This document shows, in pieces, positions 4,875 through 8,104 of a stretch of 11,078 nucleotides of DNA; position 1 is the first letter of the stretch; every line of letters starts with the position of its first letter. Location of the stretch: the IMG/VR virus record IMGVR_UViG_641522623_000003, positions 1 through 11,078 of that record; one strand, given 5' to 3'. The position numbers and the translations under genes are program-made. The DNA is from a virus (taxonomy: Duplodnaviria; Heunggongvirae; Uroviricota; Caudoviricetes). The notes below the pieces were generated by a model, which was not told the origin of the DNA, did not search any database, and worked only from the letters and a program-made list of their open reading frames with translations.

Positions 4875-5096
4875 ATGGCAGACATCATTGATTCAGCATC
4901 AGAAATTGAAGAATTACAGCGCAACACAGCAATAAAAATGCGCCGCCTGAACCACCAGGCTATATCTGCCACTCATTGTTGTGAGTGTGGCGATCCGATA
5001 GATGAACGAAGACGCCTGGCCGTTCAGGGTTGTCGGACTTGTGCAAGTTGCCAGGAGGATCTGGAACTTATCAGTAAACAGAGAGGTTCGAAGTGA
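4875..5096 (+). CDS. TraR/DksA-family C4 zinc-finger protein (lambda Orf73-like)
   Basis: 73-aa ORF with CxxC…(17)…CxxC (CCECGDPIDERRRLAVQGCRTCASC). Size and position between orf61 and ea22 fit the lambda TraR homologue. Confidence 0.8.
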   Translation: MADIIDSASEIEELQRNTAIKMRRLNHQAISATHCCECGDPIDERRRLAVQGCRTCASCQEDLELISKQRGSK

Positions 5097-5506
5097 GCGT
5101 AATTCACTCTCAGGCACTGCGTGAAGCGGCAGAGCAGGCAATGCATGACAACTGGGGATTTGACGCGGACCTTTTCCATGAGCTGGTAACACCATCGATT
5201 GTGCTGACACTGCTGGATGAACGGGAAAGAAACCAGCAGTACATCAAACGCCGCGACCAGGAGAACGAGGATATTGCGCTAACGGTGAGGAAACTGCGTG
5301 TTGAGCTGGAGACAGCAAAAATCAAAACTCAACGAGCAGCGTGAGTAGAAGGTGTTATCTCGGATGGAAGTAAGCGTATTGCTGAACTGGAGGCCTGGGT
5401 TGAATACACAAGAGCTGCATACGTAAGAGCAAAAGACAAGGGAGATTTGATCAGAGTTATTACCCGACAACCAACGGGATTTTACGCTTACGTACCATGT
5501 AATTAG
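5093..5506 (+). pseudogene. ea22-like gene, interrupted by in-frame TGA and shortened
   Basis: GTG start 5093 overlaps the upstream stop. 83 codons (MSVIHSQALREAAEQAMHDNWGFDADLF…) run to TGA 5342..5344. The same frame then stays open for 53 more codons (VEGVISDGSKRIAELEAWVEYTRAAYVRAKDKGDL…) to TAG 5504..5506, with no in-frame start. Confidence 0.45.
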
Positions 5507-5590
5507 GAATCCTTGAAGTGGCAGCCTAACTGCGGATACACTGAAATGGCGATTTGGTAACATGTTTCGCACAAGGGTAGTGACTCCAAC

Positions 5591-6094
5591 TTACTGATAG
5601 TGTTTTATGTTCAGATAATGCCCGATGACCTTGTCATGCAGCTCCACCGATTTTGAGAACGACAGCGACTTCCGTCCCAGCCTTGCCAGATGTTGTCTCA
5701 GATTCAGATTATGTCGCTCAATGCGCTGAGTGTAACGCTTGCTGATAACGTGCAGCTTTCCCTTCAGGCGTGATTCATACAGCGGCCAGCCATCCGTCAT
5801 CCATACCACGACCTCAAAGGCCGACAGCAGGCTCAGAAGACGCTCCAGTGTGGCCAGAGTGCGTTCACCGAAAACGTGCGCCACAACTGTCCTCCGTATC
5901 CTGTCATACGCGTAAAACAGCCAGCGCTGACGTGATTTAGCACCGACGTAGCCCCACTGTTCGTCCATTTCCGCGCAGACGATGACGTCACTGCCCGGCT
6001 GTATGCGCGAGGTTACCGACTGCGGCCTGAGTTTTTTAAATGGCGGAAAATCGTGTTGAGGCCAACGCCCATAATGCGGGCGGTTGCCCGGCAT
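5591..6094 (-). CDS. insB: IS1 InsB (full 167-aa insB frame)
   Basis: 167-aa [19 protein letters not shown]…[10 protein letters not shown]6C frameshift motif present (plus-strand GAGTTTTTTAAA, ~6029..6040). Confidence 0.9.
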
Positions 6095-6288
6095 CCAACG
6101 CCATTCATGGCCATATCAATGATTTTCTGGTGCGTACCGGGTTGAGAAGCGGTGTAAGTGAACTGCAGTTGCCATGTTTTACGGCAGTGAGAGCAGAGAT
6201 AGCGCTGATGTCCGGCAGTGCTTTTGCCGTTACGCACCACCCCGTCAGTAGCTGAACAGGAGGGACAGCTGATAGAAACAGAAGCCAC
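6013..6288 (-). CDS. insA: IS1 InsA
   Basis: 91-aa ORF, 2 aa different from copy A (…[19 protein letters not shown]). Confidence 0.9.
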
Positions 6289-6400
6289 TGGAGCACCTCA
6301 AAAACACCATCATACACTAAATCAGTAAGTTGGCAGCATCACCCGCTTAAAGATAATCAGCCATGATTAAACGCTTTGTAAAAAGTAAAAGGAAATTACA

Positions 6401-7015
6401 ATGAAAAAATCAATACTAATTTTAGGGCTTACGTTAATTGTCTCATCTCAAATACCATCGGCAATGGCAAAAAATGAATCAAGACTTTGGGTTGTTGTTG
6501 ATCGAACGGAAAGACATACCTGCCCTTCAAGTAAATGTGGAGTGGCTGGGAAACTATTTTTCAGGGAAGGCGTAGATTTTCTAGAAAAAAAAGGTGAATG
6601 GGTTCGTATAACTGAGCCATATTCAGCCTCATGTGTGGGAGGGGAAAGCGAATATATTAAAGAAGGTAATAAATCCTGCACAAGAAAAAACGGAATCGTC
6701 AATGGCAAGTTTTCAGAATGGGTTAAACTTAGTGATCTTAGCAGTGAAAGGCCATCAGATCCTGCTGAAAATGCGAGCGGAGATGATACTTTAATCAAAG
6801 GATCTGATGACTACCGTATATACAAAAAAGAGTTTTCTTCGGCAGCTAGGAAGTTAATAAACGAAGGGGTCTGCACGGAAAGCGACTTTAAGGAAATCGG
6901 AGGGTGGATGGCATCAAGCAATAAGGGGAAAAACATCTATTTCACATATTGCGGAGGAATGACGTTGTCGAACAGAATATACCTAGACGTTAAAAGTGGA
7001 AAGACTTTTAGATAA
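6401..7015 (+). CDS. Secreted (Sec signal peptide) Cys-containing hypothetical protein, accessory cargo
   Basis: 204-aa ORF with RBS AAGGA 8 nt upstream. N-terminus MKKSILILGLTLIVSSQIPSAMA↓KNE is a typical signal peptide with AxA cleavage site and no lipobox. Mature part has 6 Cys. The gene is visibly AT-rich versus the flanking lambda genes. No family recognised by eye. Confidence 0.7.
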   Translation: MKKSILILGLTLIVSSQIPSAMAKNESRLWVVVDRTERHTCPSSKCGVAGKLFFREGVDFLEKKGEWVRITEPYSASCVGGESEYIKEGNKSCTRKNGIVNGKFSEWVKLSDLSSERPSDPAENASGDDTLIKGSDDYRIYKKEFSSAARKLINEGVCTESDFKEIGGWMASSNKGKNIYFTYCGGMTLSNRIYLDVKSGKTFR

Positions 7016-7086
7016 TATGATATTACCAATGACAGTATTAATTTAATGCCTCCATAGAATTATCTCTAGGAAGTATGTATAAGAAA

Positions 7087-7120
7087 AGCCCGCACAATGA
7101 GCTGCTGCGGGCTTTGTGTT
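7087..7120 (+). terminator. Rho-independent terminator candidate downstream of secreted-protein gene
   Basis: Stem AGCCCGCA (7087..7094) / TGCGGGCT (7106..7113) with an 11-nt loop, followed by TTGTGTT. Confidence 0.5.
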
Positions 7121-7308
7121 ATTCGCCATATTTTATGAAGCAAATACGACACTATAGATAATTAAGCGTTGCTGGTTGTCGATTCCTCACTCACTCCTGT
7201 TGATGGCTCTCTTCTTGTATGTGCCATTGAAGGGTAATATCGAGTAAAAAGATACCGGAAGTATCCGCGCCGCCATGATTGTCTTTCTCCTAATGCAGGA
7301 AAAGCAGA

Positions 7309-7428
7309 ATGGCTAAATCATCAGCAGAGCGCAAAGTCGATCAGAGAGCCAAGCAAGCATCATCCGGTATGCGTAAGCTGGAGCTTGTACTTGATGCTCA
7401 GGAAATTGAAATGCTGGATCGTAACTGA
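7309..7428 (+). CDS. Small hypothetical ORF (39 aa) whose frame continues past its TGA stop
   Basis: ATG 7309 with AGGAAA 10 nt upstream. Translation MAKSSAERKVDQRAKQASSGMRKLELVLDAQEIEMLDRN, stop TGA 7426..7428. The same frame continues 72 codons to TAA 7645..7647 (ATRRFRHAPYEFGEYIALLSRQDDARVRWRIKSISRKRCGKCGERVPVNSCPCNGDSQCWVTKGWHETKLMI) with no ATG. Confidence 0.35.
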   Translation: MAKSSAERKVDQRAKQASSGMRKLELVLDAQEIEMLDRN

Positions 7429-7675
7429 GCCACGCGCCGCTTCAGGCATGCGCCTTACGAGTTTGGTGAGTACATCGCGTTACTGAGCCGCCAGGATGAT
7501 GCACGTGTGCGCTGGCGTATAAAATCGATCAGCAGAAAACGTTGCGGTAAGTGCGGCGAGAGAGTTCCTGTTAATTCATGCCCGTGTAATGGTGACTCAC
7601 AATGCTGGGTGACCAAAGGCTGGCACGAAACAAAATTAATGATATAAATCTCTGTGACATGTCACGGAGGCGGCA

Positions 7676-8104
7676 ATGAAATTAGACCAGCAATATCTAA
7701 AAGATCTACTTATCGCATTCGAAAAAACTCATGGCCCTGACACGATGCTTAGTGAACTAGAGGATAATGGCTTTAATAGATATGACCAAAATTTTATTTT
7801 CCATATGCGATTATTATGCGACTACGAATTAATAGTCAGGGTTGATGGAAAACCTGGGTTCGGTCATATAATGTCCAACGAGTTAGGGGAAGGTGTTGGA
7901 TATAGTTGGATCGAAGTACCACTGAGGTTGACAGCAAGAGGGCATGATTTTATTGCTGACTTGCGTCAAAAGGAGGTCTGGCAAACTATAAAAACAAACT
8001 TTAAGGATGAGGGAATTAGTACACTAATAAGTGTTTCAAAATCACTAGCAAAAGGCTTTGCAAGGAAAAAGATAAAAGATATTACAGGAATAGATATTGA
8101 ATAA
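7676..8104 (+). CDS. DUF2513-like hypothetical protein (putative winged-helix), accessory cargo at the lambda ea8.5 position
   Basis: 142-aa ORF with strong RBS GGAGG (7666..7670) 5 nt before the ATG. AT-rich codon usage. The motif …RLTARGHDFIADLRQKEVWQTIK… and a basic C-terminal tail resemble my memory of DUF2513 proteins (…LTWxGHEFLDAIRD…VW…). Confidence 0.65.
   Translation: MKLDQQYLKDLLIAFEKTHGPDTMLSELEDNGFNRYDQNFIFHMRLLCDYELIVRVDGKPGFGHIMSNELGEGVGYSWIEVPLRLTARGHDFIADLRQKEVWQTIKTNFKDEGISTLISVSKSLAKGFARKKIKDITGIDIE

Follow-up and report, generated by a model that had tools for sequence, protein, structure and literature searches.

An exported SH3b protein with an undescribed conserved C-terminal domain, encoded by a mobile gene of a decayed lambda-type prophage of Escherichia coli

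The locus and the target gene

The window analysed here is a stretch of 11,078 nucleotides of the Caudoviricetes record IMGVR_UViG_641522623_000003, which is 100% identical to a locus of Escherichia coli ATCC 8739 and contains the remnant of a lambda-type prophage. The gene under study, hereafter the target gene, is the open reading frame (ORF) at 6401-7015 of the window, and its product, the target protein, is a protein of 204 amino acids (aa). The target protein is composed of a predicted signal peptide, an SH3b domain and a C-terminal domain (C-domain) that is new and undescribed in Pfam 2025, PDB 2026 and BFVD, and its gene behaves as a mobile accessory gene. We hold this description of the anatomy and mobility with high confidence. 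The features of the gene and of its product are the following.

6401..7015, stop included, + strand: coding sequence of the target protein, WP_000748284.1, phrog_8310 (ORF list; RefSeq annotation of the identical ATCC 8739 locus)
6401..6469, + strand: signal peptide, residues 1-23 (MKK, hydrophobic core, AMA, then K), read from the sequence; low predicted local distance difference test (pLDDT) values
6476..6730, + strand: SH3b domain, residues ~26-110, with a cysteine-bearing insertion (C41, C46, C78, C93)
6731..6781, + strand: linker, residues ~111-127, with the near-invariant R117-P118-x-D120-P121 (alignment; pLDDT >90)
6782..7012, + strand: C-terminal two-helix, three-strand domain, residues ~128-204

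The prophage remnant occupies the attB-lambda site between ybhB (1-477) and ybhC (9795 to the end of the window). The first-pass annotation, which was made from the sequence alone, had described the gene as prophage-encoded, and this agrees with the decayed lambda-type genes cIII, kil, gam, bet, exo, xis and int that lie between ybhB and ybhC and with the isolated lambdoid phage Chlobot, in which the target gene occupies the same slot, between DksA-like/ea22 genes and xis-int.

The target gene starts with ATG and matches phrog_8310 over its full length (E = 3.6e-136), a PHROG whose function is annotated as unknown. The opposite strand has a 116-aa shadow ORF. The ratio of non-synonymous to synonymous substitution rates (dN/dS) of the target gene is 0.04-0.25, typically ~0.08, where dS is unsaturated. 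Since this ratio is low, and since the protein has 82 close homologues and 1463 matching cluster representatives and 132 of 5426 complete E. coli genomes carry the gene, the ORF is a genuine gene rather than a product of chance. The ORF is thus conserved as coding, and no homology to a housekeeping protein was found, two points on which the annotation as an uncharacterised prophage protein could have failed.

Anatomy of the target protein

Signal peptide and export—The N-terminus was read by eye for a positively charged n-region, an h-region of 10-15 residues, small residues at -3 and -1 and the absence of a lipobox cysteine. The target protein begins with MKKSILILGLTLIVSSQIPSAMA, followed by K, which has the n/h/c layout of a signal peptide and is divided into MKK, the 13-residue hydrophobic core SILILGLTLIVSS and QIPSAMA, with A-x-A at positions -3/-1. 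The lipobox cysteine is absent from this N-terminus, the first cysteine being residue 41. Sec export and cleavage by signal peptidase I after AMA, as predicted earlier, are supported by this layout and by the export-type N-termini found throughout the family, most members of which have a hydrophobic N-terminus, a lipobox or a transmembrane (TM) anchor. Among the homologues, the same two domains are preceded by an A-x-A signal, by a lipobox or by a cytoplasmic zinc ribbon with a TM helix, and because of these N-terminal types the two-domain body would lie outside the cytoplasm in each arrangement seen.

SH3b domain—The structure was modelled with AlphaFold2 from an alignment of 41 sequences, and the model, the check that had been proposed for the loose SH3-like appearance of the N-terminal part, has a pLDDT of 90.7 and a predicted template modelling score (pTM) of 0.71, with low confidence in residues 1-23 only. 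The N-terminal domain has an SH3-type beta-barrel fold. The Pfam model SH3_3 (PF08239) matches residues 40-72 of the target protein with 16.1 bits (E = 0.013), which is below the 27-bit gathering threshold, and matches 82 of 117 family members at E<=1e-3, the best of them at 4.2e-25. By its fold the N-terminal domain is an SH3b domain, though its score is below the curated Pfam cut-off. The linker has pLDDT values >90, so both domains are modelled as a single rigid unit.

C-terminal domain—The motifs SDD[FY], C158, GGW..S, YFTYC184GG and NRIYL of the C-domain are the most conserved of the family. No Pfam model matches this domain even at E<=10, and it has no catalytic signature. The PDB sequence matches obtained with the full-length and C-domain profiles are designed TIM barrels, and these were rejected as a short chance motif summed over four repeats; no single stretch of the TIM-barrel match passes in the C-domain profile search. 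An enzyme domain is fused to none of the 117 relatives, in which the modules found in addition are limited to further SH3b copies, anchors of the zinc ribbon/TM kind and a single ankyrin array. In some relatives the C-domain occurs alone behind a signal peptide, in proteins of 102 aa, or in tandem. The C-domain is thus what defines the family, and the SH3b domain seems to serve as its targeting device. This changes the emphasis of the first reading of the protein, as the conserved part that defines the family is the C-domain rather than the SH3 part.

Cysteines—The six cysteines of the mature part, which had been counted from the sequence, are C41, C46, C78, C93, C158 and C184, and each is either invariant among 41 homologues or kept in at least 90% of them. 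In the alignment of 117 members, all six are present in 66, and only C158 and C184 in about 40, 37 of which also lack the insertion at 78-97. The four cysteines of the N-terminal domain are thus present or absent as a block along with the loop insertion, and C158 and C184 are nearly always kept. This pattern fits three disulfides, two in the N-terminal domain and one in the C-domain, and hence an oxidising, extracytoplasmic location; the disulfides probably stabilise the protein in the periplasm.

Family and distribution

An exhaustive search with a hidden Markov model, run on the representatives of 50%-identity clusters, matched 1463 of them at E<=1e-3. The exact target protein is present on at least 1000 public contigs and is a "hypothetical protein" in every source. 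NCBIfam has no match for it, and no papers on it were found by accession number or PHROG identifier, so that its earlier description as uncharacterised stands.

The 132 E. coli genomes with the target gene (97-100% identity) are from commensal, animal and environmental isolates. Among 50,697 phage records the gene is found in one, Chlobot, and IMG/VR holds about 40 E. coli-type prophage contigs with it. The gene is not specific to prophages: plasmids, mini-islands and the chromosomes of many diderm bacteria have it as well. In Citrobacter, Klebsiella and Enterobacter, large plasmids, IncA plasmids among them, carry it at 99% identity within a transplanted lambdoid fragment, an 88-kb P1-like phage-plasmid of E. 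fergusonii carries a copy, and in a 5.3-kb ColE1-type plasmid of Citrobacter the target gene is the only evident non-backbone gene. A colicin-immunity reading of this last copy was dropped, there being no recognisable bacteriocin gene among the ORFs of the plasmid.

Relatives with 60-70% identity are found directly 3' of a tyrosine integrase in Pseudomonas islands of ~5 kb, in an Aeromonas prophage between a late antiterminator and a holin, and in a Pseudomonas prophage on the opposite strand and adjoining an endolysin-like gene. Relatives with 30-50% identity are found in alpha-, beta-, gamma- and epsilon-proteobacteria, Acidobacteria, Vampirovibrionales and Bacteroidota, many of them in ordinary chromosomal contexts. 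All 77 genome loci are from diderm (two-membrane) lineages.

Besides the target homologue, the Pseudomonas mini-islands (L003, 6402-11660; L008, 369-6065; L009, L010, L020, L022 and L023) encode a tyrosine integrase, a protein with a weak match to KilA-N and, without a family match, proteins of 105, 130 and 337 aa; they may be an uncharacterised satellite or mobilisable element.

A stand-alone mobile gene

The guanine-plus-cytosine (GC) content of the window is 0.39-0.41 over 6400-7200 and 0.47-0.55 in the exo/bet/IS1 flanks. The target gene is intact, and the adjoining ea22, S24 gene and another ORF are pseudogenes. Its position differs among lambdoid, Aeromonas, Pseudomonas and P1-like elements. 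The 135 non-redundant immediate neighbours of the family were assigned to Pfam families, and none of the 97 families found occurs more than three times (integrase three times; S24, UmuC-type and transposases twice each), so there is no obligate partner gene. Adjacency to a DUF2513 gene, which always accompanies the target gene in the E. coli lambdoid lineage, is limited to that lineage and to one weak case in Marinobacter, a DUF2513-like ORF 3' of a C-domain-only relative (L074, 6347-6709). The low GC content, the strong terminator described below and the intact state amid pseudogenes support the view that the target gene is a stand-alone mobile accessory gene, a phage "moron", kept because it is of use on its own.

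Expression signals and the two IS1 copies

The surroundings of the target gene in the window contain the following features.

6390..6393, + strand: ribosome-binding site AGGA, 7 nucleotides (nt) 5' of the ATG, read from the sequence
7085..7123, + strand: intrinsic-terminator-like hairpin (AAAGCCCGCA ... TGCGGGCTTT), then a T-rich tail; fold energy -22.9 kcal/mol, z -3.6
5480..5575, + strand: native leader, displaced (alignment with Chlobot, BR1220 and the E. fergusonii plasmid)
5576..6345, - strand: IS1 copy 2, a direct repeat of the IS1 at 1224 (RefSeq IS1 transposase; junctions from alignment with uninterrupted strains)
6330..6357, + strand: promoter-like site, with -35 TTGGCA in the IS1 end, a 16-nt spacer and -10 GATAAT in native DNA; 10/12 consensus match
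1224-~1991: IS1 copy 1, in direct orientation to copy 2
7169..7234, + strand: remnant of an S24 (UmuD/HumD-like) peptidase gene, just 3' of the terminator; RefSeq "DNA repair protein" pseudogene
7676-8104: DUF2513 gene (phrog_585, a PHROG of unknown function)

The ribosome-binding site and the ~150 nt 5' of the target gene are conserved among Chlobot, strain BR1220 and the E. fergusonii plasmid. The terminator hairpin is kept in Chlobot, and an analogous hairpin lies 3' of the E. fergusonii copy; a terminator scan picked up the hairpin of the window on the - strand. The leader contains the hexamers TTGAAG (5513-5518) and TACACT (5537-5542), separated by an 18-nt spacer and kept in all four leader-bearing sequences, which form a putative native promoter. 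In the window, IS1 copy 2 is inserted 56 nt before the start codon and has moved the native leader 770 bp away from the target gene, so that the window copy is cut off from it. The hexamers TTGGCA and GATAAT at the IS1 junction are a candidate for a hybrid promoter created by IS1, which may now drive the target gene; promoter-like sites near the gene are no commoner than in shuffled sequences. Transcription of the early operon cannot reach the target gene in the window, because pL and N are lost from the remnant. Rfam finds no RNA element in the conserved leader (5300-7700 searched), and a sub-threshold match to the Thr leader in the same interval was rejected as a product of the terminator hairpin.

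The alignment with uninterrupted strains shows no 9-bp target-site duplication at IS1 copy 2, and nine bases of BR1220, CTGTTACTA, are missing at its junction. The absent duplication and the lost nucleotides suggest a later IS1-mediated rearrangement. The block from cIII, kil, gam, bet and exo to the truncated ea22 is flanked by the two direct IS1 copies in an arrangement like that of a composite transposon. Between ybhB and the first IS1 (478-1223) there are only fragments, annotated as partial nucleocapsid, helix-turn-helix and serine acetyltransferase pseudogenes, and the left arm of the prophage is replaced or deleted. The remnant also contains two DUF genes, a TraR/DksA-like gene, the truncated ea22, pseudogene debris, the DUF2513 gene and an ea8.5-like ORF, and neither the ORF list nor the RefSeq annotation of the window includes a repressor, lysis or structural gene. 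A near-palindrome, CTGTGACATGTCACGG, at 7652-7667 has one mismatch from the LexA consensus, lies 9 nt 5' of the DUF2513 gene, directly against the ribosome-binding site of that gene, and is a possible operator.

Linkage to SOS mutagenesis genes and to lysis genes

Some copies of the gene are wired into LexA/umuDC operons. In the metagenomic, alphaproteobacterium-type loci L014 and L015, umuD, the target homologue and umuC stand in this order, with gaps of 45 and 10 nt, behind an alpha-type LexA box (GTTC-N7-GTTC). In the E. fergusonii phage-plasmid (L019), a perfect gamma-type LexA box, TACTGTATATAAACACAGTA, precedes a humD-like S24 gene, and a 158-nt leader separates this gene from the target copy. 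The two regions are as follows.

L014, 4019-6411: umuD-X-umuC region, X being the target homologue
L019, 2323-2751: humD-like S24 gene region

Directly 3' of the terminator, the window and Chlobot keep the C-terminal part of a homologous S24 gene; the "UmuD-like" ORF of Chlobot (L002, 6769-7086), which is longer than the remnant in the window, is similar to the intact S24 gene of the E. fergusonii phage-plasmid (2.5e-15). In three further lineages, umuDC or fragments of it lie within ~2 kb of the target homologue, and linkage to SOS mutagenesis genes thus recurs in about six independent contexts, which are a minority of the copies. A scan for LexA boxes upstream of all loci gave convincing results in two cases only, L019 and L014/L015. 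In the Pseudomonas prophage L139 there is a LexA box, TAACTGTACAAATACACAGTAT, at 2860-2880, before a divergent umuDC pair and 2.2 kb from the target homologue. A 2013 paper on SOS domains (PMC3765255) is not relevant here, as it mentions SH3 solely for ImuB-C.

Several phage copies have an endolysin-like or holin-like gene as neighbour, in most cases encoded on the other strand. The assignments to GH19, GH24 and holin come from reading the translated ORFs by eye, without a check against a profile library. In L139 the target homologue is head-to-head with an endolysin-like gene (GH19-type) on the opposite strand. In the phage contigs L141-L143 the 102-aa C-domain-only variant (4917-5225) is located between a holin-like gene and a lysozyme-like gene (GH24-type) on the opposite strand, and a small ORF with two TM segments lies directly 5' of it. 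Both kinds of placement are leads and not proof, because both are generic cargo sites of mobile elements.

Proposed role of the target protein

Our preferred, though tentative, reading is that the target protein is a non-catalytic periplasmic protein that sits on peptidoglycan and shields the wall from, or inhibits, wall-degrading enzymes. The SH3b domain would dock the protein on peptidoglycan, and the C-domain would be the binding or blocking module at the cell wall. The enzymes concerned could be the tail lysins of phages that attack the cell, endolysins set free when neighbouring cells lyse, lysozymes or lytic bacteriocins, and the carrier cell or lysogen would be protected from them. This shield reading fits the data best because the gene acts alone, is carried by many mobile elements across genera, is retained in decaying prophages, has a very low dN/dS and occurs in soluble and lipid-anchored forms with occasional endolysin-like neighbours. 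Strong purifying selection is consistent with a target that does not vary, for instance peptidoglycan or the conserved fold of an enzyme, and the adjacency to lysis genes hints at a link with wall-degrading enzymes. The lysozyme inhibitors PliC/MliC also exist in soluble and lipoprotein versions, which the target family parallels.

Several points weigh against wall shielding. The target protein has no sequence or fold similarity to Ivy, MliC/PliC, PliG, T4 Spackle or immunity proteins, and the PADLOC defence models give no match at E<=1. Adjacency to lysis genes is weak evidence, because such positions are generic sites of moron insertion. Many family members are in ordinary chromosomal contexts with no phage nearby, which fits a general envelope role equally well. 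Peptidoglycan binding, the periplasmic location and the disulfides are predictions, and the copies linked to LexA/umuDC are not obviously explained by a shield function.

That general envelope role, in which the target protein is a peptidoglycan-associated periplasmic protein or lipoprotein for wall organisation or stress tolerance, carried as fitness cargo without any phage-directed activity, is somewhat unlikely. The breadth of the family, with its 1463 representatives, agrees with it, as do the strong purifying selection, the lack of a match to defence models and the 77 diderm loci, many of which are non-mobile: one copy lies between metW and pheT, and the Vibrio copies have conserved synteny. 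However, the relatives with 60-100% identity are nearly all on mobile elements, in Escherichia, Citrobacter, Klebsiella, Enterobacter, Aeromonas and Pseudomonas, which is typical of an immediate, host-independent benefit.

The linkage to SOS genes raises another explanation, which we regard as unlikely: a modulator of the wall or of division timed by the SOS response or by prophage induction, which would bind peptidoglycan and delay septation or wall turnover. It would be expressed upon LexA cleavage or when pL or late transcription fires. The logic is that of the exported LysM protein YneA of Bacillus, of ChiZ of Mycobacterium and of the phage proteins Kil and DicB. The operons of L014/L015 and L019 and the three further lineages with umuDC nearby are in its favour, together with the S24 remnant directly after the target gene in the window and in Chlobot and with the lambdoid copies, which belong to the pL early operon, where they follow kil and read in the sense direction. 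Yet S24 and UmuC-like genes are each only 2 of the 135 non-redundant immediate neighbours, and the 600 nt upstream of 6401 in the window contain no LexA box (CTGT-N8-ACAG, up to one mismatch). Moreover, mobile elements often have umuDC itself among their cargo, and the linkage may thus be hitch-hiking; in other phages the placement on the opposite strand with an own terminator suggests expression in the lysogen. The resemblance to YneA, ChiZ and SosA is limited to the idea itself.

Classical superinfection exclusion, in which the protein would block a receptor or the periplasmic passage of DNA as Cor/Llp, SieA, Imm and Ltp do, with no action on wall enzymes, is quite improbable. An exported product of a prophage moron that acts as a single gene would suit such a role, and the accessory regions of some loci also hold Abi-like, Druantia (DruA) and restriction-modification genes. 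However, PADLOC and PHROGs give no homology to a known exclusion protein, homologues are found in non-phage chromosomal contexts, and the very low dN/dS and the conservation across hosts with the differing receptors of E. coli, Pseudomonas and Aeromonas speak against the recognition of any one receptor or phage protein.

It is very unlikely that the target protein is an auxiliary part of the lysis module, which helps, targets or times the endolysin of its own phage. The concept has been published for Drexlerviridae (PMC13164509), holin-like and endolysin-like genes are neighbours in several phage lineages, and the Aeromonas copy stands between the late antiterminator and the holin. Against this, the gene is usually on the strand opposite to the lysis genes, the lambdoid copies are far from the lysis cassette, and the gene persists in remnants, plasmids and islands without any lysis genes, the window included.

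A host-interaction or virulence factor released beyond the periplasm is extremely unlikely: the protein is exported and encoded on enterobacterial prophages and plasmids, and one relative is fused to ankyrin repeats, but there is no secretion-system signal or partner gene, most carriers come from the environment (soil and marine Pseudomonas, Rhodobacteraceae, Vibrio), those in E. coli are commensal, animal and environmental isolates, and the SH3b domain points to the bacterial wall.

Significance

No member of this family of more than 1400 cluster representatives is named, has a Pfam domain for its conserved half or has a solved structure. The spread of the gene among Escherichia, Klebsiella, Citrobacter, Enterobacter, Aeromonas and Pseudomonas and its survival amid prophage decay usually mark a direct, single-gene benefit. 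If the target protein does protect the wall against lysins, it would bear on phage therapy, on endolysin-based antibacterials and on the ecology of lysogens; if the linkage to umuDC is functional, it would add an envelope arm to the Gram-negative SOS response. A bolder and rather doubtful proposal is that the "YFTYCGG" C-domain founds a new family of periplasmic effectors of diderm bacteria, either a new structural class of inhibitor that serves as portable wall armour or, in the umuD-X-umuC arrangement, the first exported, peptidoglycan-docked SOS checkpoint of Gram-negative bacteria, comparable to YneA and ChiZ.

Comparison with known systems

SH3b domains of the SH3_3 type are found as wall-binding domains in endolysins, lysostaphin and NlpC/P60 hydrolases. 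Unlike these proteins, the target protein has no catalytic domain attached, and its SH3b domain has a cysteine-rich insertion with two probable disulfides and an undescribed partner domain of 80 residues. Its hosts are diderm, so that the domain would act in the periplasm.

The extracellular subdomain 2 of MapZ binds peptidoglycan. This subdomain (PDB 2nda) and cystatin-like alpha+beta folds are the best structural match of the C-domain, and the MapZ domain is also extracytoplasmic.

A standalone SH3 protein (DUF7244) of T1-like phages (Drexlerviridae) has been proposed as an auxiliary of the lysis module (PMC13164509, 2026). It resembles the target protein in its SH3 fold, in the lack of an enzyme domain, in its occurrence in phages of Gram-negative bacteria and in sometimes adjoining lysis genes, and the function of both is hypothesised. 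DUF7244 is absent from the Pfam matches of the target protein at E<=1, the presence of this model in the Pfam copy used being unconfirmed. The DUF7244 gene is further marked by its place beside a pinholin and a SAR endolysin, and the window contains no lysis genes. In contrast to the DUF7244 protein, the target protein has a signal peptide and a second conserved domain, is not tied to a lysis cassette and is widespread outside phages.

The inhibitors Ivy, PliC/MliC, PliG and T4 Spackle are, like the target protein, small, stand-alone, exported, disulfide-containing proteins of diderm bacteria or phages for which an action at the wall is proposed. This likeness is an analogy only, as no similarity in sequence or structure to them was detected and these inhibitors have no SH3b domain.

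The lambda-family morons bor, lom and HK97 gp15 share with the target gene a low GC content, an own terminator, a patchy presence and a single-gene exported or membrane product. The target protein is unrelated to theirs, and, unlike these morons, its gene extends to plasmids, mini-islands and the chromosomes of bacteria far removed from the enterobacteria.

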